Shown in pieces: positions 9,667-59,441 of a stretch of DNA of 64,000 nucleotides. The notes under the pieces are model-generated. The model had not been told where the DNA came from. It searched no databases and worked only from the letters and a program-made list of their open reading frames with translations. The translations under genes were made by a program, and so were the position numbers. Source of the DNA: Chiloscyllium plagiosum (taxonomy: Eukaryota); NCBI RefSeq assembly GCF_004010195.1, contig NC_057718.1, positions 90,997,353 to 91,061,352 on the forward strand, written 5' to 3'. Numbering within the stretch: position 1 is the stretch's first letter; every line of letters begins with the position of its first letter.

Positions 9667-12600
9667 TGTGACATGAATGGAAAGATGGAGCTCAGTTAAA
9701 GTCATTAAAAAGGAAGTAACCATGATAGCAACATCAACTCAAATAATCAAGAAACACAACAGCCTTTTAAACCTCTGAGACATCAAAGATGAAGTTGAAA
9801 GGCAACAGAGAACCACACCCAGTCTCTCTTCATTCAATTACAGAATAATGGAGTGTTGTCGTCATCTTTGCAGAGGTCCTTGGAAAAGGTCGACACATCT
9901 GTCTTGCATAATAGTTACTGTATCTGCTCATTTTGTGTAAAAGATGGTTGGTTTTAATTGAAAGACATTAATTGTAGAGAATTACAGTCTTTGGACCACC
10001 ATGTCTGCACCAGTCATCAAACACCCAATCATTCTAATCATATTTTCCTGCACTTGACCTATAACCTTTTATGCTGTGACATTTCAAGTGTTCATCTCGC
10101 TAGTTCTTAAATATCTTGAGGGTTCCCACCTCTGCCCTTCTTTCAGACAGTAAATTCCAGATACTCACCACTCTCTGGGTGAAAGAAGTTCTTCCTTAAA
10201 TTGCCTCTAAAATGCCTGCCCCTTTACCTTAAATCTACTTATCAATCCCTCTACTAAGGGGAAACCTCTCTTTCTATTTGTCCTATTAAAGCTCCTCATA
10301 ACTTTGGATACCTTGATTGGATTATTCACATTTTTAACTACCTCTCTAGGTAATCAGCTTCTGTACATTTTATGCACTACTGTATTTGAAGTCCAGATCA
10401 ATTATCTGCAGTTGGTTATTAACTTCTCCTTTCAATCTGAGTTGAGGACAGTACGTAATGGACTGAGTTTTAGGCAAATGCAGTTTCCCTTCTATAAAAC
10501 AGTGAAGGTGACTTTGTTGTAAGGAGTGCGCTGGGTCTTTATTGGAAGCTTTTAAAAGTGATCTAAGAAAAGACTTCTCATGTTTTGTAGGCAGAAGTGA
10601 GTACTACAGATTAGAATCAAGATTAGAGTGGAAAAGCATAGCAGGACAGGCAGCATCCGAGGAGCAAGAAAATCGACATTTCGGACAAAAGCCCTTCATC
10701 AGGAATCATATTTTGTCCCAAGCCATTAACTAACTCCTGAACAGGCCGAATGAAGAGGCTGTGTGGCTCCTCTCGCGACCACTCCAGTTTTTGTGAAAGA
10801 CTGTCCAAAGCCCTGGAAAAATTGTACAGCGGAAGCTGAGAGAAAGTGTGGAAAAGATTCACAGTTGCCAGTATTAAAAGGAACCAACAATTGGCAAAGC
10901 TTCAGCAGGCTGGGATCTTTTCTGTTGAAAAGGAGCAAGACAAACCTGAAAGAGGAAAGTAAAATTCTACAATGGATTTGTTAGGGTGGGTGTGAAGGAC
11001 CTGACTTCAGTTGTATTTCGAGTGAGTTTATTAGTTGCTAAACATGAGAGAAAGTAATGATGCAACATATCCACACAGGTTAGAAATGAGGTGTGATTCC
11101 AAAAAAATGGGGTAAAAACCGAGTCAGTCTCTGGGTTATTCTTGAAGAGTAGATAAAAGAACGTTGCTGGTTAAACAGTTGGTGTTGAGATCCTTGGCTT
11201 TGCAGTTACTTGAAATGCTTTTGTCCTATTTTCATTTGATTGGCTAGCTGCCTTCTAGGACTCAGAGCAAGATAGTTCTTTGACTGCAATGCAGGGGTAA
11301 CCAGTTTGTCCTCTGTAACTTTCACAAAACTAGACTTGCTATGCATGAGTACTTCAACCTAATGCCACACATGAGCCCCTTAGCTCACTAGCGTGCCTTC
11401 TTCCACTAGGGAACGTAGACAAAATTGAACTAGCTTTTAATCCATGTTCTAGTGTACTCGCGAAAGAGGAGGACATAAAATGTCTCTCACTCAGACTGCT
11501 GTCTTTTTTTCTCTCATCATGTCCCCAGTCTGAGATAACACCCAGAAATTACTGTTTACTTTTTAGTACTTTTCTCCCTTTAAGCCCATGCCTTTGAAGA
11601 TTTCTTAGCACCTCATCAGGTGTGACATTCCAGGATGTGACTGTCCTGATAGTCACTGAATTTACATCCACAGTCACCTTGGCCATGCGTCCTTTCAAAA
11701 AACATGTTGGCATTAAAATATTCAATATGTCCAAAGGTGATCTGGGGTTATGATTCATGATGATGAGAATTGATATGATAGACATTGTTGAAGGACCTGA
11801 ATATTAGGCCTTACTCTTTCAAAGCCCCAGGCTGTTCTGCCCAGTACCCCACATGACATCATTGTAGGAGCTGCTGAAGGCACTCCTCAATATTAACCCT
11901 TTCAGACCTTGTACAACAGAAGACACTAGAAAAGGGAACAGGCAAGGCCATGGTGGGATTTGCAAATACAGATGAGAATTTTAAGGCGTTGCTTAGCTGA
12001 GAGTGAATGTAGGTCTAGGAGCACAGGATTCTGTGTAACTGGGACTTGGTGTGAGTTGTGAGCAGAATTTTGAAAGATCACTAGTTTATATAGGGTATGG
12101 AACATTCCTGGAGTGCACGGTAATAGTCAAACTCCTAGGTAACAATGGCATGAATAAGGGTTTCGGTAGCAGATGAGCTAAGATGGGCAATGTTTCTGAG
12201 GTTGAAGTAGGCTTCTGTGAATATTTACGTGGAGGAATTTCCTTACCCTGAATACGGGAAGGAATACTCAGTGCTCAAAAGATTGACTTGAGATTCCCTT
12301 GCACACAAATGCCCAGATGTTCAAAAACCAGCTTAAGGCCAGCCTATATGTTATCTCCCAGCGTAGTAAAAGTGAAGGGAAGGAATGTTCAAAGTTGATG
12401 TACTACACTTTTAAGTTTTGGGCTTTGTTTGTTACCCTTTTTATGATAATTCTGTACTATCTGAAAAGTTACTACAGCATTCATGATCTTACTACTCACT
12501 TATCTCAGACAGCTGTAATTAATAGACAAATTAGTTAAAGCAAAAAGCACCAAGATCTCGAAGGAGAGAGATCCAGAACTGTCTGCTTCTCCTTGCACAC

Positions 12601-12772
12601 ACGTGCTTTTTAATCCTACACATTTGAGATGGGTAGTATTTATTCAATAGCAAGTAACATCTCAATCAAAGAAATGTGGAACTATTAAGACATCAAGTAA
12701 TTTGTTATTCGGATAACTTGGGGGCATATCCTTTCATGAATTACAAAGGTATTCAAATTACCCACTTTAATA

Positions 12773-12948
12773 CAGAGGAACCTTGATTATCCAAAGGACA
12801 TGGGCAGGCAGTATTTCGTTCGAATAATCGAATTCCGGATAATCGAATGCCGGATAACATAGTTTAGCCGAGCATCAGGACCTTGCGATCTTACCGGATA
12901 ATCCAATATTTGGATAATCAAATGCTGGACAATCGAGGGGCCTCTCTA
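12773..12948. mobile_element. MITE, same family as 52843
   Basis: TA|cagaggaaccttgattatcc TIR, multiple ggataa motifs, degenerate right TIR. Confidence 0.8.
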
Positions 12949-13749
12949 CAATATTGAAGAGTGTGTAATCTGAGTGTTTTTGATGACTTGGACTTTTTTT
13001 GTGGTTCTCAATTATTGCTTTTCCAGGCATGGCTTTAACATTTGACGAAAGGAATATTAAAGAGAGACGTCCTGTATAAATGAATATTTTTGTTGTCAGC
13101 TTTCTCTTCTCCTTTGTTTGAAAATGTCAGTTCTTTCAGTATGTTATGATTCTATGGATGTTAGGTGCCAGCTTGTACCTTTAACGAAAATGATAATTAT
13201 TCATTCATAGTAACCTATGACAATGAATACTGTAGGTGGTTTATTTGGAAACATCACAAGGGAAGTGCCACGTGATGCCCAAGCTTTCATTGCCAGCAGG
13301 GAATGCTGGATAGTAGTTGGGAATCAGAACCCTGCTCACTATTTGTTCAGAAGTTTGATTTGAATAAGATTTGGTACTGCAAGGAGATACAAGTATCCTG
13401 AGGAGTAGGTTGAACTTGCTGGAACTATGGTTACGATGATGTAAAGCAATTTTAAGTTGTATCTTTTGATCCCCTCTAATGGCTTGTCACGTCTTCTGAA
13501 ATATCTTGTGACATTTTACCATGCAAAAGACAAATGCAAATTGGTGTTCTCGTTATAGAGTTAGTCAGAACCATTGTTGATTAAACTAGTATTACCTGTT
13601 TTAATTCCTTCGATTACTGTAAACCTCATTAAATCCTAAAATTAATTGGCATGCTACTCATTGTGTTCGTTAAGTGCCACACCAATGAATGAAAGTTGGA
13701 GGAACCATTCACATAATTAATAGCTTTAGTATCATCAGTATTGTTTATA

Positions 13750-15062: not shown

Positions 15063-15069
15063 TTTGTGA

Positions 15070-15533
15070 GCCGGTATGGTGGCTTAGTGATTAGCACTGC
15101 TATCTCACAGCACTAGGCACCCTGGTTCGATTCCAGCCTCTAGCGACTACGTGCAGTCTCCCCATGCCTGCATAGGTTTCCTCTGGGTGCACTGGCTTCC
15201 TCTCTCAGTCCAAAGGTATGCAGGTTAAATGGATTGGCCATGCTAAATTGCCCACAGTCTCCAGGGATGTCCAGACTAGGTGGATTAACCATGGGAAATG
15301 AAGGGCTACAAGGATAGGGTGGGGGTTGGGTCTGGATGGGAGGCTATTTGGAGGGGAAAGTGAGGACTGCAGACGCTGGAGATCAGAGTCGAAAAGTGTG
15401 TTGCTGGAAAAGCACAGCAGGTCAGGCAGCATCCGAGGAGCAGGAGAGTCAATGTTTCTGGCATAAGCTGTTAGAGAAGCAGTGTGGACTCGATAAGCTG
15501 AATGGCCAGTTTGCAAACTGTAGGGATTCTATG
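15070..15533 (+). mobile_element. HE1-type SINE interrupted by a Penelope-like fragment (~15355-15468)
   Basis: A/B boxes (tggcttagtga; ggttcgattcc) and CR1-type tail ctgtagggattctatga. Confidence 0.8.
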
Positions 15534-16430: not shown

Positions 16431-16460
16431 TTTCTCAACCACTGGTCTGCCCAGGACCAT

Positions 16461-16923: not shown

Positions 16924-17159
16924 TATATGTGGGAATGGAGGTTTCCTTCAGACAAGGTGTTTTTATCATTTTAAAAATGGATTGTCACTCAAAGGTGACT
17001 TGGGAAAATAAATGTCAAATCCGCATCCTTTTGAGAGTTATTCTAGGTCCATTTGACGTTTGTATTTGACATTCATCTCGTCTTATATTATGTCCAAAGA
17101 TAACACCAGTTAGGGTGAGGTAATGTCATTAATTTCAGTAGATTGTTGAACCTCTCTTC

Positions 17160-17920
17160 AGAGTCATAGTCATAGAGATGTACAGCATGGAAACAGACCC
17201 TTCAGTCCAACTCGACCAGATATCCCAATCCAATCTAGTCCCACTGCCAGCACCCAACCCATATCCCTCCAAAGTCTTCCTATACATATACCCATCCAAA
17301 CGTCTTTTAAATGTTGAAATTGTACCAGCCTCCATCACTTCCTATTCAATATATGCACCACCCTCTGCATGAAAACATTGCCCCTTAGGTCTCTTATATC
17401 TTTCCCCTCTCACCCTAAACCTATGCCCTCTAGTTTTGGACTACCCCATCCCAGGGAAAAGACTTTGTCTATTTATCCCATCCATGCCCCTCATGATTTT
17501 ATAAACCTCTGTAAAGGCATCCCTGAGCCTCCGATGCTTTAGAGAAAACAGCCCAGCCTGTTCAGCCTCTCTCTTTTGCATCCTTGTAAATCTTTTCTGA
17601 ACCCTTTCAAATTTCACAACATCCTTCTGATAGGAGGGAGACCAGAATTGCACACAGCATTCCAAAAGTGGCCTACCCAATGTCCTGTACATCTGCAACA
17701 TGACCTCCCAATTCCTGTACTCGATACTCTGACCAATAAAGGAAAGCATACCAAACACCACCTTCACTATTTTATCTATCTGAAACTCTACTTTCAAGAG
17801 CTATGAACCTGCACTCCAAGGTCTCTTTGATCATACCGTTAAGTGTATAAATTGCGCTAAGATTTGCTTTCCCAAAATGCAGCACCTCGCATTTATCTAA
17901 ATTAAACTGCATCTGCCACT
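17160..17920 (-). mobile_element. CR1 LINE 3' end
   Basis: ORF 17441..17797(-) RPLLECCVQFWSP. Confidence 0.9.
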
Positions 17921-19432: not shown

Positions 19433-19568
19433 GAGGTAAAAACAATGACTGCAGATACTGGAAACCAAAGTTTAGATTAGAGTGGTGCTGGAAAAGCACA
19501 GCAGTTCAGGCAGCATCCGAGGAGCAGTAAAATCGACATTTCGGGCAAAAGCCCTTCATCAGGAATAC
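19433..19568 (-). mobile_element. Penelope-like terminal-repeat fragment with 10-bp TSD
   Basis: TSD cttcagtatc at 19423-19432 and 19569-19578; homologous to 50352-50478. Confidence 0.85.
19531..19566 (-). ncRNA. Minimal type I hammerhead ribozyme motif
   Basis: AUUC-CUGAUGA-A-GGGC UUUU GCCC-GAAA-UGUC-GAUU. Confidence 0.6.
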
Positions 19569-20092: not shown

Positions 20093-20789
20093 GTAAGTGC
20101 AATTTTCTGCTGGTTTACATCTTATTGAAGTCCTACAACACGAACACACAAGCTGCTGCACATTCAGAGCCCCTCAATGTTAAAATAACAACTTCCTAAT
20201 TGTTGAATAAATGCAGAGAAAGATGAAAGCAAGCTCATGTAGAGCATAAACACCAGCAGAGACCTATTAGATAAAATGGCCTGTTTCAATGCTGTAAATA
20301 AAATGTAAAAAAAGATTGAGCTGTTAACTTGCATTAGAACTGGACTAGCTCAGAAGTTATGTGACACCAGGTTATAGTCCAAAAGGTTTAATTGAAATCG
20401 CAAGCTTTCAGAGCACTGCTCCCTCATCAGATGACCTGACAAGCTTTCGGAGCGTTGCTCCCTCATGATTTAAAATGAATCCTTTGGGCTATAACCTGGT
20501 GTCATGTGACTTCTGACTTTGTCCATTGGCACCATTGGACTGGAATAGCACAAATGTTGATCAGGTGTGAGAAACACACAGACCTATGTAGTGCATCTGC
20601 ACTGGCCAATGAATACAGCACCTGCAGGTAAATCAGCTTTATTATGTAGTCATTTGCATTAAAGCATTATTAGTTTATGATATGATATTGCTGCTTCAGC
20701 ACTTAGTGATATAAGCGTAGATTTGACAGTGTTAAAGGAGGCACTTGACGGTTAATTTAAGAATATGAGAAGATCCTTTTTAAACAACT

Positions 20790-21025
20790 AGAAGAAAGTG
20801 AGGATTGCAGATGCTGGAGATCAGGGTCAAAAAGTATGGCGCTGGAAAAGCACAGTCGGTCAGGCATCATCTGAGGAGCAGGAGAGTTGATGTTTCGGGC
20901 ATAAGCCCTTCATCAGGAATGTGGGCTTATTACTGATGAAGGGCCTCTGCCCAAAATGTTGATCCTCCTGCTCCTCGGATGCTTCCTGACCTGCTGTGCT
21001 TTTCCAGCACCACACTTTTCTTGAC
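20790..21025. mobile_element. Inverted pair of Penelope-like terminal repeats
   Basis: Two arms in opposite orientation around ~20925; imperfect direct repeat (cc-Tn-aaacaa) on both flanks. Confidence 0.8.
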
Positions 21026-24628: not shown

Positions 24629-26139
24629 ATTACAGTGGCTATTTACTAGGTAGCAAGGTAGTTTAATAGATTGTTTTACCTAATTTCCTAGATGCAAGGA
24701 GAACGAAGAGAAAGAAATGGATAAAGAGCCATTATATTGATATTTCCTACCTGTGTGACATGAATGAATGTCATGGAGCCACTGGCCCAGCACTCCATTT
24801 AAGTTGTTCTGAAGTGGCCTTAGTAGGAATGATTTCAGTGTGGCATCAGATGTCATTGTAAGAGTCTGAATGATGTGCTCAACAGGATAAAGTTCCTAAA
24901 TTACTTCCTACCGGACAAAACAGGAACCTTCGAACCTGATTCTGAAGATGAAACTGAAAAAGGTATTACAAAAAAACAATAGGAAATGCAAGCTGCGGCA
25001 GACCACATGAAGATCGAACAAAGCTGATCATCTGCCTGCCTTAATTGCTTCACTTCCGTTGATTCCCTAAAGATCAAAATAAAAGTGTCCATCTCTAAAG
25101 GTACTCAATAATGGAGCATCATAATTTCTAAAATAGGGAGTTCCACAACATTTTGAGTAAAGAAATTTCTCCTCGTACTTGGCCTAAATGATTAAGATTG
25201 TCTCCTGATGTTTTATATTTCCCAATCAGGGCGAGCAACCTCCACTCAGTGTCAACTTTGTCAGATCTCCTTACAATCTGGTTTATTTAACTGAGCTTAC
25301 TTCTCATTGCTCTTCACCCGAAGGTCCAGGAGTTAGGTACGAAAAGCTCATTCAAATTTTAAGATCTTCAAACTTCTTAAAAGAATTAATGACGTCCTGT
25401 TACGTTCCTGGAAATATTAAGCAATATCAATCTTTTAGTTAAATTAGAATCGAAACAAAGATGAGCATTGATAATTCGATGTGTCTTAAAGTTAATGAAC
25501 TTGAGACTGAAGAGAAGCTTGGGACAAATTCCAGTAATGGTTACATTGTCAGTCTCTAGATCAGGCTGCCTTTCATATTGTAAAAACAACTATGTAGCAG
25601 CAATCTAAAATGTGCTTATTTCCCTTGATTTGAGAAATACTTTTATAGCTTTGCTAACCTATTACTCCAAAGAGTTGAGAATGAGTGAAAATTGGCTTTC
25701 TACGCACCATGATTAATTGTATCCTTTTTGTTGGGATTTTGATTTATTGTTAGAACTTCCAGCTGTCTACCCTAACACAGTCTGGAAGTGCTCTTGGGCG
25801 CTGTTTTAGAGTGTTTTCCTGTAACTTTGAGAAGACTTCTTGTACAGCTAGTACTTAATAGTGCTTTCCAAAGGATTGAGCCTCTCAGACACTGCTAATA
25901 TCTCAGTTCATTTGCAAATCTCCTGTAATATTTCACGCTGAAACAGGATGATCCTGACTGATGGTATACCATAGCAGTTTCCAGCAAGGGGATAGATGAC
26001 TATCCAGCAAGGCGTTTGTTCTTGGGAAATTGTCAAATATTGCTGCTAAGAATGTCAATTTTAGGAGTTCTAGACATTTACTGAAAACACACCATTATGA
26101 AGCTGAACCTGGCTTGCAGCTGATCAGAGACCACTTTAA

Positions 26140-27803
26140 TACCTTAGCAGGGATGACCGTGAAGGAACAATGGCAGATATTTCTGTGTATAATGCAGAAG
26201 TTGCAGGATCAGTTCATTCCTAAAAGGAAGAAAGATCCCAGGAGGAGGCATGGGCAGCCGTGGCTGACGAGGGAAGTTAAGAAACATATAAAGTTAAAAG
26301 AGAAAAAGTATAACATAGCAAAGATAAGTGGGAAAACTGAGGACTGGGAAGCTTTTAAAGAGCAACAGAGGATTACTAAGAAGGAAATACGCAGAGGAAA
26401 AATGAGGTACAAAGGTAAANNNNNNNNNNNNNNNNNNNNNNNNNNNNNNNNNNNNNNNNNNNNNNNNNNNNNNNNNNNNNNNNNNNNNNNNNNNNNNNNN
26501 NNNNNNNNNNNNNNNNNNNNNNNNNNNNNNNNNNNNNNNNNNNNNNNNNNNNNNNNNNNNNNNNNNNNNNNNNNNNNNNNNNNNNNNNNNNNNNNNNNNN
26601 NNNNNNNNNNNNNNNNNNNNNNNNNNNNNNNNNNNNNNNNNNNNNNNNNNNNNNNNNNNNNNNNNNNNNNNNNNNNNNNNNNNNNNNNNNNNNNNNNNNN
26701 NNNNNNNNNNNNNNNNNNNNNNNNNNNNNNNNNNNNNNNNNNNNNNNNNNNNNNNNNNNNNNNNNNNNNNNNNNNNNNNNNNNNNNNNNNNNNNNNNNNN
26801 NNNNNNNNNNNNNNNNNNNNNNNNNNNNNNNNNNNNNNNNNNNNNNNTATTAGTAATAGCATTAGCAAATTTGCTGATGATACTAAGCTGGGTGGCAGGG
26901 TGAAATGTGATGAGGATGTTAGGAGGTTACAGGGTGACCTGGTCAAGTTAGGTGAGTGGGCAGATGCATGGCAGATGCAATTTAATGTGGATAAGTGTAT
27001 GGTTATCCACTTTGGTGGCAAGAACAGGAAGGCAGATTACCACCTAAGTGGAATCAATTTAGGTAAAGGGGCAGTACAGAGAGATCTGGGGGTTCTTGTA
27101 CACCACTCAATGAAGGTAAGCATGCAGGTACAGCAGGTAGTGAAGAAGGCTAATAGCTTGCTGGCCTTCATAACAAGAGGAATTGAGTATAGAAGCAAAG
27201 AGGTGCTTCTGCAGTTGTACAGGGCCCTGGTGAGACCACACCTGGAGTATTGTGTGCTGTTCTGGTCTCCAAATTTGAGGAAAGACATTCTGGCTATTGA
27301 GGGAGTGCATGCGTAGGTTCACGAGGTCAATTCCTGGAATGGCGGGGCTACCTTACGCTGAAAGACTGGAGCGACTGGGCTTGTATACCCTTGAGTTTAG
27401 ACGCTGAGAGGGGATCTGATTGAGACGTATAAGATTATGAAAGGATTGGACATTCTGGCAGTAGGAAGCATATTTCCACTGATGGGTGAGTGCTGAACCA
27501 GAGGACACAGCTTAAAAATAAGGGGTAGGCCATTTAGGACAGAGATGAGGAGAAGCTTCTTCACCCAGAGAGTGGTGGCTGTGTGGAATGCTCTGCCTCA
27601 GAGGGCAGTGGAGGCCCAGTGTCTGGATTCATTTAAGAAAGAGTTGGATAGAGCTCTCAAAGATAGTGGAATCAAGGGTTATGGAGATAAGGCAGGAACA
27701 GGATACTGATTAGGAATGATCAGCCATGATCATGTTGAATGGCGGTGCAGACTCGAAGGGCTGAATGGCCTACTCCTGCACCTATTGTCTAGTGTCTATT
27801 GTC
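26140..27803 (+). mobile_element. CR1 LINE spanning an assembly gap (N 26420-26847)
   Basis: PWLTREVK linker before the gap; SKFADDTK..LVRPHLEYC after it; (ctattgt)n tail. Confidence 0.95.
26420..26847. other. Assembly gap (N run)
   Basis: Run of N. Confidence 1.
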
Positions 27804-28057: not shown

Positions 28058-28260
28058 TTAAAAATCTCACAACACCAGGTAATGGTCCAACAGGTTTATT
28101 TGGAAGCACTAAATTTTGGAGCGCTGCGCCACCTGATGAAGCAGCAATGCTCTGAAAGCTAGTGCTTCCAAGTAAGCCTGTTGGACTATTACATGGACGT
28201 TGTGTGATTTTTAACTTTGTACGTCCCAGTCCAACTCCAGCACTTCCAAATCATGACTAC
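28058..28260. mobile_element. Inverted pair of a second Penelope-like terminal-repeat family
   Basis: aaaatctcacaacaccagg..tggaagcact followed by its reverse complement; hammerhead core at 28130-28164. Related copies at ~7430-7550, 20350-20525 and 62915-62985. Confidence 0.7.
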
Positions 28261-28268
28261 CATTTTTT

Positions 28269-29344: not shown

Positions 29345-29582
29345 GCAAAAATCAAAAGAACTGCGGGTGCAGTAAATCAGAAACAGAACAGAAATTGCTG
29401 GAAAAGCTCAGCAGATCTGGCAGCATCACTGGAGAGAAATCAGAGTCAACGTTTCAAGTCGAGTGACCCTTCCTGTTAACTCTGATTTCTCTTCACAGAT
29501 GCTGCCAGCTCTCCTGAGCTTTTCCAGGAATTTCTGTTTTTGGTTCTGATTTACAGCATCTGCAGTTCTTTCGGGTTTTTAT
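29345..29582. mobile_element. Inverted pair of Penelope-like terminal repeats (older family)
   Basis: aaagaactgc..gaaattgctggaaaagctcag..gaaatcagagt mirrored on the other side; related pieces at 30022-30260, 40650-40760 and 62340-62470. Confidence 0.65.
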
Positions 29583-29943: not shown

Positions 29944-31863
29944 AACGGCGTACTGTGGAAGTCAAAGGATAATTCAAGGTGCTTTCAGTGTTGGTAAGGC
30001 AAAAGTTAAAATTGTGAAACAGGCAAAAACAGAAATTGCTGGAGAAACTCAGCAGGTCTAGCAGCATCTTGGTAGATAAAACAGAGTTAGCATGTCGAGT
30101 TCACTGACCCTTCCCCTGGTTTTTGTTTGTTTCAGATCTCCAGCATCCGCAGTTTAGTTTTATTTTAGCGTTCAATTCAGTGCTACATCTCTACCAGATA
30201 TGCCATTCTGAGGAAGGCTCATTGGACTCGCAATGTTCACACTGTTTTCTTTCCACAGGTAATGCACAGTATCCTTAGCTCTCTGTTTTATAGTTAAAAT
30301 TGGGGTTTGTAATTGGTTTAGCTGTCTGAAATAGAATGTGTTTAATTTACAATGCCGACGTTTAAAATCCTTCAGCAAAGAAAAAAATTAATGTATCCTT
30401 AAATTTGCTTAAGTGAAAGGTCAATTGTTCATTCTGAAGGTATTTACTTAGACATAATTATTCTTTGCTGATCCAGATTGGTTGGACACACCTTGTTTCT
30501 TTATCCTTCCTGGTTAGATTAGAAGCATTTTGTTTGATCCATTGTTATAAACTTTGTCAGAGTCCTGCATAACGACGGCCATTTCTTTGCAGAGATCAAG
30601 CCAAAGAAAATGCAAGTTTTTTAGGGTGGAACCAGGCAAGTGAGCAACATGATTAAGCTTCATAAGAACCAGTAAGATTGGTCTGCTGAAGACTGGCATT
30701 TTGATGTGAATTAAGGCTTTTAATTGCAATCCAAAACTGTTTAGATTGGAATGTACAGAGTGTGTCATGCCTTTTTTAAAAGTGTGCCGATTTAGTCCAG
30801 CCCTTTGATGGGTATTTGTTCTGGGTGTCTTAATGGGCACAAGCCCAGTTTTTCAATGTCCTGGCCAGCCATTTGGTTCCATTTCCTGTTGACATGCAGT
30901 GAAATGTTGAAATTAGGAAAACCATCGCCCATTTGTATCCGGATGTTCCTGTGGGAAACTCAAATTCTTGTCATGTGTTTCTCTGAAAATCGCCGAGCAT
31001 AAAGTTGGTGAGATTCTTACACCAGCTAGATTGGCAATAACTTGATCTGAGCACAAGCATTTTGAACTTCAATAAACCAATATTGGAAACATGCCCAGCT
31101 ATGACCCGTTTCCATGTTTTGAATAGTCCAATGGGTCATTCAGAAAGTAACCTGCTGTAAATATGCAAGCTACATTGAATCCTACAAGGACTTGTCTGTT
31201 TAATTTCACTTATATAATTTATTTTAGGATTTTGAATTTCTGAGGTGTATTGCAGCCACACAGTTTTCAATATGAGTCACTTTTTCTGATGCATTTGGAT
31301 GTCTTATGGCTGTTGCTTAAATCCCTCCTCTCCTGAAGGGCTCTGATCATCCTGATTCCAAGTGGGATTTGAAGAGGGAACACAGAGGAGCTATGCCATG
31401 GGTCTCAGTAGACTTTTCAACCAAAAGGAAGTATCGCCACTAATTCTGATCTAGGGTCTGCATGTGACATGTACAGAGAAATACCATATCCAGCATGAGC
31501 TGTGTTTGAGATTGCAAATCCGAGACCGGATTAGAACTGCCGCGGGCAGAAGGTGAAAGCTGGGTTTCCACAGGTTTCAAGCTGGGTCCATGATCCACAT
31601 CCTGAACAAGCCCTGGCTGGATCCACAGTGGATCCCCGAGCTTTTGGAGAAGGTAGCTGTCCCCCTACCCCGTGTCCCCCCAGAAGGGCCATGTATACCA
31701 GACAGAACCGCAGCCTGAACCTGCCCACAGGGAGGCAGTTTTCAAGATGCTATCAGTTCTAGTGCACACACCGATTACGTAGACCTAGGAATCTTGGATG
31801 TAAAAAGCAGCTTTGAAGCAAATTTATTGATACAGTGAAAAGAATCTTCCACTCCCAAGAATT

Positions 31864-36618: not shown

Positions 36619-36986
36619 ATGGTTAACTGAAACTATCTCTGACTCACTTTTTTTAAAAAAAAAGGTGCATGTGGATGCTAGTGGTCTGTCTATTCTTCAA
36701 TTTGTGGCAAATTAAGGTTTAGCGACTTGTAGCTTCCAGTGCAGTTTTGTTTTCTCAAGATGTTACTTTATTGAAACAACATCCTCCATTAGAAACTTTT
36801 GGTCATGGCTTCCCTTACAAATAAGTTGCTTGGTTTTCAAAGCTGGGAAATGGGTTGTAAAGTTCAATTTGCAGCTGAACAGTTTGTAGTTTGTTAGAAC
36901 AGCTAGCAACTTAAAGACATCTTTCTTTGCTTTTGCACCATCATGATTCTGTGCTAGAGCAGAAAAAAGGAGGGGGATATGTTACT

Positions 36987-37590
36987 TGAGTATTGAGTAC
37001 AGGAGTTGGGAGGTCATGTTGCGGTTGTACAGGACATTGGTTAGGCCACTGTTGGAATATTGCGTGCAATTCTGGTCTCCTTCCTATCGGAAAGATGTTG
37101 TGAAACTTGAAAGGATTCAGAAAAGATTTACAAGGATGTTGTCAGGGTTGGAGGATTTGAGCTATAGGGAGAGGCTGAACAGGCTGAGGCTGTGAGGCTG
37201 AGGCTTTATATATAGGCTTATAGAGGCTTACAAAATTATGAGGGGCATGGATAGGGTAAATAGGCAAAGTCTTTTCCCTGGGGTCGGGGAGTGCAGAACT
37301 AGAGGGCATAGGTTTAGGGTGAGAGGGGAAAGATATAAAAGAGACCTAAGGGGCAGCTTTTTCACACAGGGCGTGGTACGGGTATGGAATGACCTGCCAG
37401 AGGAAGTAGTAGAGGCTGGTACAATTGCAACATTTAAGAGGCATTTGGATGGGTATATGAATAGGAAGGGTTTGGAGGGATATGGGCCGGATGCTGGCAG
37501 ATGGGACTAGATTGGGTTGGGATATCTGGTTGGCATGGACGGGTTGGACCGAAGGGTCTGTTTCCATGCTGTACATCTCTATGACTCTAC
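36987..37590 (+). mobile_element. CR1 LINE 3' end
   Basis: LVRPLLEYCVQFWSP; RTRGH..FFTQ.VV..WN; tail ctctatgactcta. Confidence 0.95.
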
Positions 37591-41040: not shown

Positions 41041-43846
41041 GTCCCCATAGGTTTATATGGAATTGTGATCTTTTCAACATGAAACCTTGCTCATAAAATT
41101 TCCCAAGTGATTATGAATCTCAGAAGGAAAAGGGCAGATTTATCATTTGCTGTTCTTATGTGATTCAGACCGAATAAAGTAATTTTACTCTCATCCAGTC
41201 CTGTGTGTTTTAATTTAATGTTGATAGAGTTTGTATTAAAAATACTTTTTGTTAATCATTCAGTGCAAGAGGTTACTGGTGGTTATCTGATTCGCTCCCC
41301 AAGTATCTTTCCGAGTTCTGTCACACCAAGAGGTTGGAAGTCTCTGAATAGTAGCAGGGTGACATTTCACTGGGACATTGGGATTCACCTGTTTCAGAGG
41401 CATTCAGTGCTGGATGGAACTAGTAAACACTGTCCTTTCCTCTGCCCACAAATATTTGTGTGTTTTGATCAGAAACTTGCTCTCACCTGGCATCTGATTC
41501 CTGTATGGTACCCTCTAAGGGAGTCATTCCCGCAACTGTTGCTCCCGCTCTGCCTGGCTCCACGTCTTCCTCCCATTCCTTGCGAAGGCCAAAGGTGGAC
41601 AGACCCCCTGACCGGTCACCCATGACCAAGGTCACCATTTCTCCTGGTGTCTTCTATAATGTGTCTTGTAAGATGATGCCCTCAGAGAATTTTCAGAATA
41701 TCTGTTCATGGAATGTTGTCAAAATGTTCCAAAATATCTCCCAACACCTTTTAAGAATTCACTTCAAACCTCCTGGCCAACAGTGAAAGCTGAATCCTTG
41801 CTCAGGGTCGCAAACATCGTATTTTAAACTGTCACTTGCTTAGCTCTGAGCCAGTAGTGCTTGTACCAACTTTGCAGAGTTGAAAGTGTGGCACTAGAAA
41901 CGCACAGCAGGTCAGGCAGCATCCAAGGAGCAGGAGAGTTGATGTTTCAGGCATAAACTCACCTCTGCAGAGTGTTATTGAAGTGCTACCAATTTAAGTA
42001 CCATGTATCATCTTTAATAATCAGCAGCAGGCAATTTACCTATAAATCAGATGCTTACACAACTTTCCAGCAACTGTTCCTAGAAAACAGTTCAGTTCCT
42101 TCGCTAAGATAGTTTCTTCTGTTATAGACATTGTTATATAAAAGGTAAAAACAATGACTGCAGATGCTGGAAACCAGAGTCTAGATTAGAATGGTGCTGG
42201 AAAAGCACAGCAGTTCAGGCAGCATCCGAAGATCAGGAACCACATCTTGTCTACAGCAAAAACATTTTCATGCTGGAAGTAACTGGAAAAATCCAAGTGC
42301 TGTGTTTAATCTTGAAAACAGAAAGCGGGAAGTATAAATTAGATTGGAATTGTGCGCGAAAAGTAAAATAAATATTGGGGAGAAAAGAAACAGATGAGGT
42401 TAAGAGAACCAGTTAAAGAAAATATAAAATCTTTTTTCAAAAAAAGCTGAACTTTTTTTTAATATACGTATCACAAATTAAATTATGAAAAATGTGATTT
42501 GTGAACCTTCAGTATTGCATGAATTGCTTACCTGCAATATTCATTGACTGGTGGCTTTGGTTCAGAGTTGAATTTTGTTCCATAATGCACATGCGAAACA
42601 CACTAAGATGTTTTTTCTCACCATTAAAGGTGCTAATTAATGACAAGCTGTTGCTTTTAAAACAAAAATTAATCTCTGCTGATTGTACCAACTCTGCCGT
42701 CTTTAGAGTGGATTTTGTGGACAAAGATTCCATTTTTCACATTGCATGGATGTCAATGTATGTCTTATCAGCAAGAATTATTACACTAAGAGAATTATTA
42801 TACTCTAGAGGTGTGGAGTTTGCCAGACATTACAGATTTGTGTGTTTAACTGTGCAGGTGCCAATGCTGGAACTTGCAATCTGATTTACTGCTCAAAACA
42901 GTAAGGAGTATTCGCCATTATTCCCACTACCTATCAATTATTTTGATTTTTTTTGTGTACCATTAACAATTATAAAAAAGCAAAACAAATTGCTTTTATG
43001 TGATACCTTATCAACGGAAATGTTGCAAATGCGATTTAATTGGATACAAATACATTGGGGTACGAAGGCAAATAAGAACTATTATTCTGTGCTAGAAACT
43101 GTTCTGAAAAGGCTTTTAGGTGTCTGGAGCAACCTCATTATGATGCTCCAGGATGGCTATCAAGAGCACAGTGTGGTTGGAGGGAGAAAGATGGTGAGTG
43201 GCTTTGTTGGTTGATGTCTAACCATGTGAATGTTAGAGAGGCAAACATACAGAGAAGCGCGTGGAGTAGACTGACTAGCAATACCTGGTAGATTTTACGA
43301 GATAGATATTCAGTAATGTAACTGTGAGCTTAGAAGCAGTTTTCTCCTGAATTGAATCCCGTATTTAGTCTTTATGGCCCAGGTCTTGCAAGCAGTGACG
43401 GGCATAATCAGATTACTAGTCTGCTCCTATTTCATTTCCCCACGAGTGCTGATGTCTATGTTCATAGCCAGGAATTTCAATCCTGGTTCCTTGAGGCAGG
43501 AAGATTGTACCTGAACCCAAATATTTCTCTTATAGTGCAGGATAACAAGGTGATGTCGAACCATGTCGTCTTTTTGATAGTCAGTGCACCGTGTTGTGAC
43601 ATTAAACTGTGCAGCTACTGCGAAAGGATAAGTTAGTAAGCTACTTGTAGGGCCAGGGTACCAGGGAAATGTTGTTCTGGTTGGGATGGGGAAGATGGAG
43701 TGGTTGTCAGGGTCCAAGGGATATAAAGGTTCAGGGGAAGTCTACTTGGGAGAGAGGGTCTGTTGAGTCCATAGGGTTAGTTTAATACATATTAATCCAG
43801 GAGTTGGACTAAGTTTTTAATTGTCTAAGGTTTCCTGGGGAACTAT

Positions 43847-48225: not shown

Positions 48226-48662
48226 TGACTGGAAAAAGCGCTGATGGCAGACAGACCCTTGGACTTGCTCGGTCTCCTGCACTACCTCCACCCAGGGGGA
48301 GCTGCAGCCATGAGTGACTGCTGCTGCCGACTATGCTGGGAAGGGGGATTCACCATTTATTACATTCATTTGAAAGCTTTTTTTTTTTGGAGGTTGCATT
48401 TAGAGTCATAGAGATGTACAGCACGAAACAGACCCTTCAATCCATGACTGGAAAAAGAGCTGATGGCAGACAGACTCTTGGACTTGCTCGGTCTCCTGCA
48501 CTACCTCCACCCAGGGGGAGCTGCAGCCATGAGTGACTGCTGCTGCCGACTATGCCGGGAAGAGGGATTCACCATTTATTACATTCAATTGAAAGCTTTT
48601 TTTTTTGGAGGTTGTATTTAGAGTCATAGAGATGTACAGCACGAAACAGACCCTTCAATCCA
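48226..48662 (+). repeat. Near-identical tandem duplication, unit ~219 bp
   Basis: tgactggaaaaag..cccttcaatcca occurs at 48226-48444 and 48445-48662. Confidence 0.95.
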
Positions 48663-48908
48663 ACTCGTCCATGCCAAACAGATATCCTAACCTAATTTAG
48701 TCCCATTTGCCAGCACTTGGCTCATATCCCTCTAACCCTTCCTATTTTAAATACCCATTCCAGATGCCTTTTAAATGTAATTGTACCAGCCTCCATCACT
48801 TCCTCTGGCTTCTATGAAGCTGCCCTCCTGCTCTGCCTCTAACAGGGACAGTGCCTGGTGGTTGAGAGTTCTGATAAGGTCTGCAATCTCTTTCAGTGGA
48901 CTGCAAAC

Positions 48909-49118
48909 ACAAAATGGGTTGCTGGAAAAGCGCAGCAGGTCAGGCAGCATCCAGGGAACAGGAGAATCGACGTTTCGGGCATAAGCCCTTCTTCAGGAAT
49001 TCGGGCTTATGCCTGAAACGTCGATTCTCCTGTTCCCTGGATGCTGCCTGACCTGCTGCGCTTTTCCAGCAACACATTTTCAGCTCTGATCTCCAGCATC
49101 TGCAGACCTCACTTTCTC
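48909..49118. mobile_element. Young inverted pair of Penelope-like terminal repeats
   Basis: Near-perfect ~75 bp inverted arms; TSD ctgcaaac at 48901-48908 and 49119-49126. Confidence 0.85.
48965..49000 (-). ncRNA. Minimal type I hammerhead ribozyme motif
   Basis: AUUC-CUGAAGA-A-GGGC UUAU GCCC-GAAA-CGUC-GAUU; activity untested. Confidence 0.7.
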
Positions 49119-49569
49119 CTGCAAACCCAAAAGGCAGCCTCTTAATTGCTCATCATGGGGTAGAGCTCGCAGACAGGAATCCCAACAGGTGGAGCAGGGC
49201 TGAGACCAGAAATAGTTCTGGCACGAGCCCACAGCACACAGACAGAAGATTCTGCCTAGAGTAAGCAATCCAATTACTCTTACTCCCAGATCATAACTTG
49301 TTACATGTATTAAAACAAAACGTCAAAAGCAACAACAATGGAAGTCAGAGAGCAGCTTCATTTAAAAATGACAAATTAAGCAGTAACTTGCTGGATTCAA
49401 AATTCATCAAAGATTGTTGCTTTCAGTGATCAAAATGGACCAAAGAGCTATGGATTGAAAGTAGTGACTACAGAGGGATTTGAATTGCAAGAACTCTAGG
49501 AATGGATCAATTGTTTTATCAAAATGATATCCCATTCAGTAGGAATATGACGTAGTATAATATCGCCAT

Positions 49570-50351
49570 TGGCTCGAAGGTAGAAGGTAGTGGTGGAGGA
49601 TTGCTTTTTGGACTGGAAGCCTGTGACCAGTGATGTGCTGCAAGGATTAGTGCTGCTTCCACTGCTTTTTGTCCCTTTACATAAATGATTTGGATGTGAA
49701 CACAGGACATATATGTAAGCTTGCAGATGACACCAAAATTGGTGGTGTAGTGGATGGCAAAGAAGGTTACCTCAGAGTACACCAGGAGCTTGATCAGATG
49801 GGCTGATTGGCTGAGGAGTGGAGATGGAGTTTAATCTAGATAAATGTGGGGCACTACATTTTGGTAGGGCAAATCAGGGCGGTACTTATACACAGTTAAC
49901 AGATCCTGGGGAGTGTTGCTGAACAAAGAAATGTTGAAGTGGAAGTTCGTAGCGCCTTGAAAGTGAAGTCGCAGGTAGACAGGTTAGTGAAGAAGGCATT
50001 TGGTATGCTTGCCTTTATTGGTTAGTACATTGAGTATAGGTGTTGGCAGGTCATGTTGCACCTGTACAGGACGTTGGTTAGACCACTTTTGGAATATTGC
50101 ATTCAATTCTGGTCTCCCTGCTATAGTAAGAATGTTGTGAAACTTGGAAAGCTTCAGAAAAGAGTTTCAAGGGTGTTGCCAGGGTTGGAGGGTTTGAGCT
50201 ATAGGGAGAAGCTGAATAGACTGGGGCTATTTTCCCTGGAAAGGCAGAGGCTGAGCTGTATCTTTATAGAGATTTATAAAATCATGAGGGTCATGGACAA
50301 GGTGAATAGCCAAGGTCTTTCGCCAAGAGTAGGGGAGTCCAAAAGTAGAGG
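49570..50351 (+). mobile_element. CR1 LINE RT fragment truncated by a Penelope-like element
   Basis: KLADDTKIGG; LVRPLLEYCIQFWSP. Confidence 0.9.
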
Positions 50352-50965
50352 AGAAACTGAGGACTGCAGATGCTGAAGATCAGAGCTGAAAATGTGTTGC
50401 TGGAAAAGCGCAGCAGGTCAGGCAGCATCCAAGGAGCAGGAGAATCGATGTTTCGGGCATAAGCCCTTCTTCAGAAATGAGGAAAGTGTGTCCAGCAGGC
50501 TAAGATAAAAGGTAGGGAGGAGGGACTTGGAGAGGGGGAGGGGGGGCATTGGAAATGCGATAGGTGGAAGGAGGTCAAGGTGAGGGTGATAGGCCGGAGT
50601 GGGGTAGGGGCGGAGAGGTCAGGAAGAAGATTGCAGGTTAGGAAGGCGATGCTGAGTTCGAGGGATTTGACTGAGACAAGGTGGGGGGAGGGGAGATGAG
50701 GAAACTGGAGAAATCTGAGTTCATCCCTTGTGGTTGGAGGGTTCCCAGGCGGAAGATGAGGCGCTCTTCCTCCAACCGTCGTGTTGTGGTCTGGCGATGG
50801 AGGAGTCCAAAGACCTGCATATCCTTGGTGGAGTGGGAGGGGGAGTTGAAGTGTTGAGCCACAGGTTGGTTGGGTTGGTTGGTCCGGGTGTCCCAGAGGT
50901 GTTCTCTGAAACGTTTCGCAAGTAGGTGGCCTGTCTCCCCAATATAGAGGAGGCCACATCGGCCT
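50352..50965 (-). mobile_element. Penelope-like element 3' end: GIY-YIG endonuclease remnant plus hammerhead-bearing terminal repeat, truncating a CR1
   Basis: ORF 50638..51123(-) contains CGLLYIGETGHLLAKRFREH..PVAQHFNSPSH..RRLEEERLIFRLGTLQPQGMN (PLE GIY-YIG). Hammerhead core at 50443-50478 on the same strand. Confidence 0.9.
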
Positions 50966-51064
50966 TTTGTAATGTGATGAGAAGGTTGTGTGTTTGTCCC
51001 TTTTGGTGTGAGCACTCCCAGCACAGGCCAGCTTTGAAATATTGAAAAGTCAACAAAATATATG

Positions 51065-53837: not shown

Positions 53838-56800
53838 GGGGAGGCAGTGGCCTGGTGGTATTATCACTCGACTATTAATCCAGAAACCCAGAATAATGTT
53901 CTGGGGACCGGGGTTCGAATCCTGTTATGGCAGATGGTGGAATTTGAATTCAATTTAAAAAATCTGGAATTGAGAGTCGATTGATGACCATGAAACCATT
54001 GTCAATTGTCAGAAAAACCGATCTAATTCACTAATGTCCTTATAGGAAGGAAATCTGCAATCCTTACCTGGTCTGACCTATGTGTATGTCCAGACCCACA
54101 GTAATATGGTTGCCTCTCAGCTGCCCTCTGAAATGGGCCTAGCAGACCACTCAGTTGTATCAATCGCTAGAAAGTCGCAACAAAGAAATGAATCCGTACG
54201 GACCACCTGACATCGAACTTGGATCAAGAAAAGACAATGGCAAAAACACAAAATTGCTCTGTTGACCAGGCAAAATCCTCCTTACCAACATCTGGGGGCT
54301 AGTGCAGAAATTGAGAGAGCTGTCTCACAGACTAGTCAAACAATAGCCTGACATAGTCATTCTTACAGAATCGTACCTGACAGATAACACCCCAGACATC
54401 ACCACTATCATCCCACTGATAGGACAGATCCAGCAGAGGTGGCAGCACAGTGGTATATGGTCGGGAAGGAGTTGCCCTGGGAGTCCTTGACATTGATTCC
54501 AGACCCCAGGAAGTCTCATGGCTTCAGGTTAAACATGGGTAAGGAAACCTCTTACTGGTTATCACATACTGTCCTCCTTCAGCTGATGAATCAGTACTCC
54601 TCCATGATGAATCAGTACTCCACCTTGGAGGAAGCACTGAGGGTGAAAAATGTACTCTGGGTGGGGTATTTCAATGTTCACCTCCAAGAGTGACTCAGCA
54701 ACAGCATTACTGATTGAGCTGGACGGGTCCTAAAGGAGATAACGGCTTGACTGGGTCTGCAGAAAGTGATGAAGGAACCAACAAGAGGAAAAAAACATAC
54801 TTTAACTCATCCTTCCGAATCTGCCGGCTGCAGAAGCGTCTGTCCACGACCGTATCGGTAAATGTGACCACCGCACTGTCTTTGTGGAGACTAAGTTCTG
54901 CCTTCACATTGGGAATAACCTCCATCTTGTTCAGTGGCACTATCACCGTGCTAAATGAACTAATCCAGCAGCTCAAGACTGGGCATCCATGAGGCGCTGT
55001 CAGCCATCAGTGGCAACAAAACTGTACTTCTGCACAATCTGCAACCTCATGGCCCAGCATATCCCCCATGCAACCATTACCACCCAGTCAAGGAATCAAC
55101 CCAGGTTCAATGGAGAATGCAGGAGGGCATGCCAGGAGCAGCATCAAGCATACCTAAAAATGAGGTGCCAATCTGGTGAAGTTACCAAACAGGACTACTT
55201 GCGTACCAAATGGCATAAACAGCAAGTGATAGACAGATCTAAGCAATCCCACAACTAACGGATCGGATCTAAGCTCTGCGGTCGTGAATGTTGGCAGACA
55301 ATTAAACAACTCACTGGAGGAGGAGGCTCCGCAAGTATCCCCATCCTCGATAATGGAGGAGCCCAGGACATCAGTGTAAAAGATAAGGCTGATGCATTCG
55401 CAACAATCTTCAGTCAGAAGTGTCGTGTAGATGATCTGTCTCGGGCTCTTCCAGTGGTATTACAGATACCAGTCTCCATTCAATTCAATTCACTCCAAGT
55501 GATATCAAGAAACGGCTGGAGGCACTGGATACTGCAAAGGTAATGAGCCTTGATAACATTCCAGCAATATTACTGAAACCTTGTGCTCCAGAACTTATTG
55601 CTCCCCTCGCCAAGCTCTTCCAGTACAGTTACAACATTGGCATCTATCCAGCAATGTGGAAAATTGCCCAGGTATGTCCTGTACACACAAAGCAGGACAA
55701 ATCCAACCTAGCCACTAAGCACCCAATCAGTCAACTCCCGACCATCAGTAAAGTGATGGAAGGTGTCATCAACAGTGTTATCGAGCAGCACCTGCTCAGT
55801 GACACCCAGTTTGGATTTTGCCAGGGTCACTCAGCTCCTGACCTCATTACAGCCTTGGTTCAAACATTGACAAAACAGCTGAATTCCATGTGAGGGGAGA
55901 GTGACAGCCCTTGACATCAAGGCCACATTTGACTGAGTGTGGCATCAAGGAGCCCTGGCAAAACTGGATTCAATGGGTATCAGGGGGAAACACTCCACTG
56001 GTTAGAGTCATACCTGGCACAAAGGAAGATGGTTGTGGAGGGTCAGTCTTCTCAGCTCCAGGACATCTCTGCAGGAGTCCCTCAGAGTAGTGTCCTAGGC
56101 CCAACAATCTTCAGCTGTTTCATTAATGACCTTCCCTCTGTCATAAAGTCAGAAGTGGGGACGTTTGCCAATGATTGCACAATGTTCAGCATCACTCGCG
56201 ACTCCTCAGATACTGAAGCAGTCCGTGCTCAAATGCAACAAAATCTGGACAATATCTAGACGTGGGCTGACAAGTGGCAAGTAACATTTGCACCACACAA
56301 ATGCCAGACAATGACCATCACCAATGAGAGGCACTGTAACCACCACCCCTAGACATTCAATGGTGTTACCATCACTGAATCCCCCACTATCAACATCCTT
56401 GGTGTTGCCATTGACCAGAAACTCAACTGGACTCACCACAAAAATACAGCAGCTACAATAGCAGGTCAGAGACTAGGGATACTGCACCGAGTAACTCACT
56501 TCCTTATACCCCAAAGCCTGTCCGCCATCTACAAGGCACAAGTCAGGAATGTGGTGGAAAACTCCCCACTTGCCTGGATGGGTGCAGCTCCAACAGCACT
56601 CAAGAAGCTTGACAACATCCAGGACAAAGCAGCCCACTTGATTGGCACCACATCCATAAACATTCAGTCCTTTCACCCCTGGTACTCAGTGGCAGCAGTG
56701 TATACATCTACAAGATGCACTGCAGAAATTCACCAAAGATCCTTAGACAGCACTTTCCAAACCCACGACCACTTCCACCTCGAAGGACAAGAGCAGCAGG

Positions 56801-57045
56801 TACTTGGGAACACCACGACCTGCAAGTTCCCCTCCAAGCCACTCACCATCCTGATGTTGGAAGTATTCCGCCGTTCCTTCACAGTCGTTGGGTCAAAATC
56901 CTGGAATTCCCTCCCTACCAGCATTGTGGGTCAACCCACAGCAAGTGGGCTGCAGCGATTCCAGAAGGCAGCTCACCACCACCTTCTCAAGGGGCAATTA
57001 TAAATGGCCAGCCAGTAATGCCCAAGTCTCACAAATGAATAGAAA
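53838..57045 (+). mobile_element. Near full-length, decayed single-ORF non-LTR retrotransposon (APE endonuclease + RT, CR1/L2 group) with a tRNA-derived 5' head
   Basis: A box TGGCCTGGTGG at 53848 and B box GGTTCGAATCC at 53912. EN motifs from ~54278 (TNIWGL..PDIVILTESYL; VGYFNVH). RT motifs QFGFCQGHS, ALDIKATFD, SAGVPQSSVLGP..FINDL, FANDC. Several stops and frameshifts. Confidence 0.85.
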
Positions 57046-58373: not shown

Positions 58374-58566
58374 AGCACATGGGGATATGGATTATGACTA
58401 TCAGAAAGAAGAAGCTGCTAAGTGCTGGATGAGGGATTCTGGCTATGAAAGCTTCTTATGTAACCTCAGCATCTTCGATCGGCTTCTACACACCCATCCA
58501 GTCTGGCTACATCTCAGTCTGAGTGATGAGGATGCTCTGCGTATTCTGCAGCCCGAGGATGCTGGG
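58374..58566 (+). CDS. RIN2: RIN2-like coding exon leading into the SH2 domain (AHGDMDYDYQKEEAAKCWMRDSGYESFLCNLSIFDRLLHTHPVWLHLSLSDEDALRILQPEDAG)
   Basis: Acceptor gagcag| at 58373 is phase-2 compatible with the previous exon; donor GGG|gtaagt at 58567. RDSGY..LSI.DRLLHTHP.WL.LSLS is the RIN2-family motif. The gene continues beyond the window. Paralogue assignment (RIN2 versus another RIN) is by recall. Confidence 0.9.
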
Positions 58567-58652
58567 GTAAGTTGTTAACCTGACTCTTTTTTTCAACAAT
58601 AGGTTACATATCTATTACAATTGTGAAACGACATGCATTATCCTACACCTGA

Positions 58653-59441
58653 TTGAAGATGACAAATGCTGGAGATCACAGAGGGTAAGATCCATGGAGA
58701 GGGAACAGGCCAGCTTTTCCAGTATAGGTGACTCTTCATCAGAGCTAAAGTAAAGTTTAAGGAGTGGGGAACAGCATTTATGCTATAGTTGGGGGGGGGG
58801 GAAGGCGCTGGGTGTTGGGTGCCGGTGGAGAAAAGATGTTGATAGTGCGGCTTAAGTGATCGGATGGTGAGAATGGCAGAATATTGAGGTGTCTCCTGCC
58901 AGTTCTGAAAGGACAGTCAGTTGAATGGGGAGGAGGGGAGAAAGGAAATGATAACAAGCTGAAAGAAAGGGCAACATGTTCACAGTTTAAAGGTGTTGAA
59001 CTCCATATTATATCCACAAGGCTGTAAAGTGCCTAGTCCGAAGATGGGATGTTGTTCCTCCAGTTTGTGCTGAGATTATGAACACTTCTTCCCTTACTTT
59101 CAGCTTGTTATTATGTCCTCCCCTCCCCCCATCCCACTTACTATCCTTTGAAGTCCGGCAGGAGACACACCATTGTTCAGCCATTCTCACATTCTGATCA
59201 CTTAAACTGAACTATCAATATCCTTTCTCCACCAGCACCCTACACCCACTGCGCCCAACACCCCCACACCATAGTATAAATGCTGTCCCCTCCACACTTT
59301 ACTTCAGCTCTGATGAAACGTCATCTAGGCTCGAAATGTTAGCTTCCTCACTCTCCATAGATGCTGTCTGACCCACTATGACCTCCTCCAGCATTTGTTG
59401 TCTTCAGTACAGATTCCAATATCTGCAGTAATTTGTTCCTA
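58653..59441 (+). mobile_element. Penelope-like insertion with inverted 5' copy of its terminal repeat
   Basis: ~230 bp diverged inverted arms (58655-58885 versus 59170-59408); TSD ctacacctga at 58643-58652 and 59442-59451; hammerhead-like cores in both arms. Confidence 0.8.

Follow-up and report, generated by a model that had tools for sequence, protein, structure and literature searches.

Minimal type I hammerhead ribozymes (min-HHRs) of metazoan Penelope-like elements (PLEs) are known in fishes, coelacanth, frog, and reptiles (Cervera & De la Pena 2014, PMC4209133). We analyzed a 64,000-nucleotide stretch of the genome of the shark Chiloscyllium plagiosum (contig NC_057718.1, positions 90,997,353 to 91,061,352; hereafter, the window), for which an earlier note, made from the sequence alone, had reported eight such motifs in short repeats. 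These self-cutting-RNA motifs are genuine and are the known end-signature of PLEs. The repeats that carry them are very probably dead 3'-end fragments of endonuclease-bearing PLE retrotransposons, with three putatively Neptune-type families (A, C, and D) and a separate family (B). The known class is thereby extended to a shark genome, and its less ordinary feature here is that many pieces start exactly at the first base of the motif.

The shark motifs resemble the metazoan PLE min-HHRs in their type I core, the extra nucleotide after A9, the G10.1-C11.1 pair, the palindromic 15.2-16.2 pair, the lack of loop III, and their location in the pseudo-long terminal repeat (pseudo-LTR); in both cases, the copies are mostly solo, with some opposite-strand pairs close together (PMC4209133). 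They differ in that helix II has 4-5 bp instead of the 7-8 bp seen in Schistosoma, in that helix I of family A has only 2 bp plus a mismatch, and in their host, which is a shark.

The repeats also resemble the endonuclease-bearing Neptune elements (PMC8557442, PMC3846280): both have a C-terminal GIY-YIG endonuclease, an inverted 5'-truncated arm, a tail at one end, target duplications, and an ATG in the terminal repeat, and the closest proteins have a Cys-rich linker. However, the window holds only element ends, and the reverse transcriptase and the linker are known from homologues. A mechanism has been described for PAc (Poseidon of Anolis): its protein cuts each of the two target strands and extends them, with priming inside the tail and uncleaved RNA as the template, and it also helps the ribozyme (PMC11167929). 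PAc shares with the shark copies two 3' ends about 40 nt apart, an uncut hammerhead that is spanned, and AT-rich flanks, but it belongs to a different clade, and no accumulation of 5' ends at helix I is mentioned in the accessible part of that report. Finally, non-LTR retrozymes are short noncoding hammerhead units from PLE terminal repeats (bioRxiv 10.64898/2026.07.22.740005); they form head-to-tail arrays, whereas the window copies are solo or head to head. A literature search, with subscription papers and repeat databases outside its scope, found neither a shark-specific description nor 5' ends at helix I.

Hammerhead motifs in the window

The exact core (CUGANGA...GAAA-NN-UH) is present at all eight sites, with no core mismatches and with CUGANGA, GAAA, and NUH in the type I order; the coordinates and strands in the earlier note were right at each of them. 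A loose core pattern proves little by itself: it has 22 matches in the window, 9 inside the PLE-derived repeat families and 13 outside. With a strict descriptor (the exact core, at least 3 pairs in stem II, and at least 2 pairs in stem I), we found four loci in the window, versus a mean of 0.2 and a maximum of 1 in 60 dinucleotide shuffles. These loci (10671, 19531, 48965, and 50443) are four of the eight sites, and all belong to family A (stem II GGGC/GCCC).

At the remaining four sites, helix I or helix II is broken, so the proposal that these stems are paired in every copy stands only in part. Stem II is defective at 59306, where A-C and C-U stand in place of its first two pairs, and has one C-C mismatch at 28130. 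Stem I is broken at 20885 (C-A) and 20399 (A-C), and in family A it consists of just 2 pairs, a pyrimidine mismatch, and one A-U. Similarly, the 4-nt palindrome proposed for stem III is Watson-Crick at three of the eight sites (48965, 28130, and 20399), wobble at three, and broken at two. An Rfam search of the window gave no hammerhead family at E ≤ 10 (the best matches were to sub-threshold microRNA families), and a descriptor that requires loop III matched nothing in the window.

Linkage to an endonuclease and covariation among relatives

In families A and C, the hammerhead lies about 230-250 nt downstream of the end of a GIY-YIG endonuclease, on the same strand. The GIY-YIG open reading frame that had been noticed upstream of one copy is on the same strand as that copy, but just the C-terminal part is endonuclease (about 50961-50698), fused to unrelated flank, and its Pfam match is weak (E = 0.037). 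The best match of the family A endonuclease, at 82% identity, is a Chiloscyllium punctatum protein with a reverse transcriptase, a Cys-rich linker, and a GIY-YIG domain. For family C, tblastn located the C-terminal end of an endonuclease, which precedes the hammerhead at 58742 by about 250 nt; it also identified an older endonuclease remnant at 63147-62751 (minus strand). The reverse transcriptase was found in the closest homologues (P0001 and P0002) and not in the window, so the architecture is read from the homologues. A zinc-finger-like Cys motif lies between the reverse transcriptase and the endonuclease in all seven of the closest homologues listed (partly deleted in P0001); the window copies are truncated downstream. 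Such a linker marks the Neptune and Nematis clades (PMC8557442), and, going by the architecture of the homologues, families A, C, and D are tentatively assigned to the Neptune type. The tails of these three families are related (A-D, E = 2e-10; A-C, E = 0.003). The tail of family B is unrelated to them; family B appears to be a separate family, with a PLE origin that we infer from its motif and its insertion anatomy.

Using a profile of the endonuclease, we fetched 91 related loci, 79 from metagenomes and 12 from genome bins. By the core boxes alone, with no pairing criterion, 68 of the 91 have the motif, and 63 of those 68 have it 74-159 nt behind the endonuclease. When pairing was required, 28 of the 91 had the motif on the sense strand and none had it on the antisense strand. 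By eye, the commonest motif of these loci resembles the Acropora digitifera Neptune hammerhead of the 2014 supplement. None of the related loci showed a direct upstream pseudo-LTR with the hammerhead in it. Exact family A DNA patterns matched no stretch in viral contigs or in metagenome contigs, and a search of viral contigs with the endonuclease profile gave no confirmed locus.

We aligned 10 arms from the window with 58 of the 68 related loci (66 distinct rows), omitting near-duplicates (L004, L022, L048, L052, L068, L081, L083, and L088) and two atypical loci (L023 and L082). In these distinct rows, 85.6% of cells are paired, versus 72.0% after shuffling, and there are 93 double-sided changes, at 8 of the 10 pairs, versus 34 in shuffles; because related rows share ancestry, these counts overstate the independent events. 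The covariation score is 0.438, versus 0.110 or less for slid partners, which pair in 41% of cells or less. Across all 78 rows (69 distinct), helix I pairs at position 1 in 62 of 69 rows and at position 3 in 57, where about 32 are expected, and at position 4 in only 31. Helix III is reduced to a palindrome (A15.1-N-N-U16.1). Its 15.2-16.2 pair is formed in 60 of 69 distinct rows. This barely exceeds the mean of 55.8 in shuffles, since the column is almost invariant. The pair is C-G in families A, C, and D and G-C in family B, and the majority base of the family in reads restores C-G at position 50449. Overall, the covariation check that the earlier note had proposed supports helices I and II through compensatory changes across related elements. 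Together with the attached endonucleases of families A and C and the insertion anatomy, it bears out the view that these repeats are ribozyme-bearing PLE termini.

Three observations concern the related loci themselves. First, 14 of the 68 (L015, L021, L038, L042, L048, L052, L068, L080, L081, L083, L084, L088, L090, and L091) have a core variant, CCGANGA, with C for U at position 4 and intact helices, about 107 nt behind the endonuclease. This is apparently a variant that has become fixed in a subfamily, and standard descriptors pass over it. Second, L080-L091 have animal-type PLE endonucleases and hammerheads in contigs that are filed as bacterial genome bins, with 10 of the 12 in one bin; they are probably host DNA in bacterial bins. 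Third, L038 has opposite-strand hammerheads near 6730 (plus) and 6230 (minus), with a longer palindromic helix III and a 6-bp helix I; this pair is retrozyme-like and differs from the PLE-linked hammerhead.

Insertion anatomy

The published signature of PLE insertion is an inverted 5'-truncated arm, an optional tail of 30-40 nt on one side, and a target duplication (PMC8557442, PMC3846280), and the window insertions fit it. Seven insertions are head-to-head pairs. Target duplications at or above our threshold, which is the score reached by 2 of 150 random pairs, were found at 6 of the 16 insertions that we tested; 4 of these 6 are head-to-head pairs, out of the 7 in the window. Because these four pairs share a target duplication, they are single insertion events. 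Four of the pairs (20790, 28058, 48911, and 58654) combine a long-tailed arm with an arm that stops earlier. Loose ends genome-wide likewise fall into two 3' clusters about 40 nt apart (50349-51 and 50389-94). The two clusters and the paired arms match the two internal priming sites and the two-strand nicking of PAc (PMC11167929). A frequent starting point of the inverted arms is the base of stem II, as at 49003, at 59672, and in the minus arm at 28130, so the self-complementarity of stem II may guide the strand switch.

In families A, C, and D, an ATG in the tail opens a reading frame, with early stops in some copies; terminal repeats of rotifer PLEs contain the first codons of the open reading frame (PMC3846280 / PMC8557442). 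The tail peptide motif was found in none of 155 fetched proteins. As side observations, A and D seem by eye to differ synonymously at two codons after the tail ATG, and the tails of A (50433-50362, minus) and D (29347-29450, minus) have complementary GAUGCUG and CAGCAUC segments, which could pair as a long stem near the two priming sites.

Where the copies begin

The longest family A copy (50349..50961, minus strand) contains the C-terminal part of the endonuclease, a pyrimidine-rich 3' untranslated region, the hammerhead, and a long tail. Its helix I starts at 50478, C3 is at 50474, and the predicted cut is at 50447|50446. The 5' end could be mapped for 12 family A arms. It lies no more than 4 nt from the first base of helix I in 5 of them (exactly at that base in 3), in stem II in 4, in the tail in 2, and in the endonuclease in 1. 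In family B, 3 of 6 arms start at helix I. The DNA reads show the same boundary: loose ends on the 5' side at 50478 were seen in at least 511 plus at least 531 contigs of DNA run X1, which was saturated, and in at least 65 plus at least 78 contigs of run X15, as counted from the best 18 of 1,244 rows. Beyond 50478, these contigs turn to random AT-rich flanks of low agreement.

The RNA template seems to be uncut. Setting aside the longest copy, the 5' end is mapped in 11 family A arms, and none of them starts at the cleavage site. RNA read depth shows a small fall across the cut site, from 2,098 to 1,675 (50431 to 50449), and drops from 630 to 207 across 50475-50484; 135 similar reads that end at 50482, probably from one locus, are part of the latter drop. 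Since both copies and reads span the cut site, the template is uncut, and an uncut template has been reported in vitro for PAc (PMC11167929). We rejected the idea that cleavage defines the 5' ends of the copies, given those 11 arms and the lack of any pile-up of RNA ends in run X21, a poly(A) library that could hardly show one. A splice acceptor was likewise rejected as the source of the family A boundary: 50478 lacks an AG, one has to go 21 nt upstream to reach the nearest candidate, and the 15 of 116 joints listed include none at 50478. Separately, family A has an acceptor-like site near 50500, and family C (59299-59309, plus; 58753-58743, minus) has a pyrimidine tract with a YAG end within the 5' strand of helix I. 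A similar YAG placement is described for the end of the Drosophila Penelope intron (PMC4209133).

The analysis indicates that each master element carries a minimal type I hammerhead in its pseudo-LTR, placed after the endonuclease and before a short tail. We propose that a PAc-like cycle produced the shark copies. Most cDNAs would have ended at the hammerhead or inside it, and pairs of these cDNAs would have been joined, often at the self-complementary stem II. The ribozyme would work, if at all, in full-length or tandem master RNA, as a dimer or as a protein-assisted motif, and the dispersed copies would not cleave.

A possible but doubtful extension is that the first base of helix I is the capped transcription start of the element. 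PLE reverse transcription would prime in the tail, only 90-130 nt downstream of the start of helix I, so that an enzyme priming on the 5' terminal-repeat copy would run off the cap and mass-produce "SINE-like" stubs. The 5' ends that gather at helix I in families A and B fit such a start, and the TC|ATT context at 50478 fits the initiator consensus. A stall on the hammerhead fold would be expected to halt synthesis on the 3' side of the fold and not at its 5'-most base, which favors a capped start. Three points count against it: in Drosophila Penelope, the start lies about 120 nt before the hammerhead (PMC4209133); an identical boundary could result from a short master copy or from microhomology to ATT-type endonuclease cut sites; and of 10 inverted arms in the related non-shark loci, just 3 have their end no more than 10 nt from C3. 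If the start is capped, the run-off would account for most animal minimal hammerheads being solo. The mRNA would then begin with the ribozyme, and cleavage with protein help would take off its first 32 nt together with the cap, shortly before a conserved ATG. The ribozyme would thus be a decapping or translation switch and not a cutter of multimers.

Alternative explanations

The fixed boundary at 50478 could also arise if the short units (about 130 nt, hammerhead plus tail) were a non-autonomous SINE-like or retrozyme family of their own, transcribed as tandem arrays, self-cleaving, and mobilized by PLE proteins. Such a family would also account for the strong excess of hammerhead-plus-tail sequence over endonuclease sequence in DNA contigs and for a head-to-tail joint (50474->50349) in 19 contigs, although these are a minority of the joints, and retrozymes have been reported as PLE derivatives, including in one chondrichthyan (bioRxiv 10.64898/2026.07.22.740005). 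However, the unit ends lie off the cleavage site, unlike those of self-cleaved monomers, and 5' ends also fall in stem II, the tail, and the endonuclease. The window contains no tandem unit, and hence lacks the head-to-tail arrangement of retrozymes, and we found no tRNA-derived head or tRNA gene in it. We consider a separate retrozyme family unlikely.

Much less probable still is that some dispersed copies are active or have been co-opted as host ribozymes. The copy at 48965 keeps every core base and a Watson-Crick palindrome, and in the poly(A) single-cell run X21, family RNA is present on both strands. However, 93% of those reads continue into unrelated sequence, as expected of read-through. 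Mismatch rates are similar in hammerhead and tail, both at CpG sites (15/60, or 25%, versus 8/40, or 20%) and at other sites (17/256, or 6.6%, versus 22/395, or 5.6%); because the two decay alike, the dispersed copies probably decay neutrally and have the look of dead sequence, not of sequence under selection. When 150 nt of upstream sequence is included, the predicted probability of stem II is 0 for the five of the eight copies that are paired (20399, 20885, 28130, 48965, and 59306). Paired copies are predicted to fold as long hairpins in which the ribozyme is buried; 48890-49140 folds to -180 kcal/mol (z = -21), so cleavage of an isolated 48965-49000 construct would tell little about that locus. 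Solo family A copies are predicted to form stem II and hardly any helix I. Finally, Pfam identified no host exon among the frames searched (136 of 258 frames, of at least 62 amino acids; short exons could be missed).

That the hammerhead likeness is due to chance or is a vestige without a catalytic role is also very improbable: the loose cores outside the families, the Rfam result, and the very weak helix I of family A fit it, but the fixed position behind the endonuclease, the strand asymmetry, and the compensatory changes do not, and a PLE hammerhead has been shown to cleave with help from the protein (PMC11167929).

Several results do weigh against dead PLE 3' ends as the explanation. Most of the covariation comes from related non-shark elements that share ancestry. 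Family B has no attached open reading frame in its 6 arms in the window, and no similarity to the A, C, or D tails or to the related loci. The window contains neither a full-length element nor a tandem dimer. For the four copies tried, the best dimer is more stable than the double-hammerhead fold by 13-21 kcal/mol (for the best copy, -21.9 versus -9.3 kcal/mol), which is weak evidence, as nearest-neighbor models ignore tertiary contacts in the core. Lastly, the activity of minimal hammerheads is low (PMC4209133), and just one of nine Xenopus dimers cleaved (bioRxiv 10.64898/2026.07.22.740005).

Other PLE-derived pieces and surroundings

Self-comparison of the window identified 17 PLE-derived pieces, about 3.8 kb of 64 kb. 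Where at least three Penelope-like families had been proposed, there are four; the degenerate family D (29347-29579 and 30030-30105) was absent from the earlier note, as were further copies at 20933+, 58716-, 62898+, 7546-, 15468-, 41956-, 49003+, and 59672+.

Family A includes three head-to-head insertions besides the longest copy. In the first (48911..49120; 14-bp target duplication with 1 mismatch), the minus arm (49000-48911) starts at helix I and has the best-preserved hammerhead and a short 3' end, and the plus arm (49003-49120) starts at G10.1 of stem II and has a long tail. The second (20790..21020; 13-bp target duplication) has a decayed hammerhead on each strand, at 20885-20920 (minus, long tail) and 20929-20964 (plus, short end). 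In the third (59619..59743; 19-bp target duplication with 1 mismatch), the plus arm runs from G10.1. Minus-strand solo copies start at helix I at 19434..19568 (with a long tail and an exact 10-bp target duplication, inside another repeat) and at 10600..10706. Other minus-strand copies are truncated in stem II (15351..15468) or loop II (41875..41956) or are tail only (42143..42239), and a plus-strand tail is cut by the window start (1..93).

The family C insertion (58654..59440, head to head, 13-bp target duplication) has a minus arm with the endonuclease C-terminus (59075-about 58990) and a decayed hammerhead (58742-58712), and a plus arm from 59091 with another decayed hammerhead (59306-59344). 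Family B has two head-to-head insertions. One (28058..28255) has a plus arm from helix I, with the hammerhead at 28130-28164 and a long tail, and a minus arm that begins at the 5' strand of stem II and has a short end; the other (20341..20540) is complex, with the hammerhead at 20399-20433 (minus). A minus-strand copy at 7429..7546 is truncated inside the core and has a 22-bp target duplication with 3 mismatches, and a plus-strand copy at 62897..62990 starts at helix I and is inserted in the old endonuclease remnant at 63147-62751, which contains stops. In family D, the core is cut at G8 in both the head-to-head insertion (29347..29579), whose tail is related to that of A, and the solo copy (30030..30105, minus).

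Much of the window consists of non-LTR retrotransposon fragments, some with reverse transcriptase matches (3953-5448, 8570-9500, 17140-17800, 26000-27700, 36100-37570, 49500-50350, and 55435-57040), which we take to be CR1-like. There is an assembly gap of 431 N near 26420-26850, and 48226-48606 contains a 162-nt direct repeat with 97% identity, 219 nt apart.

Implications

The stubs are very abundant in the shark genome (130,371 contigs of one DNA run match one copy), and they can readily be mistaken for SINEs, MITEs, or microRNA hairpins. The role of the PLE hammerhead is a question for the field, and the abundant shark copies map, to the base, where reverse transcription starts and stops around the ribozyme.

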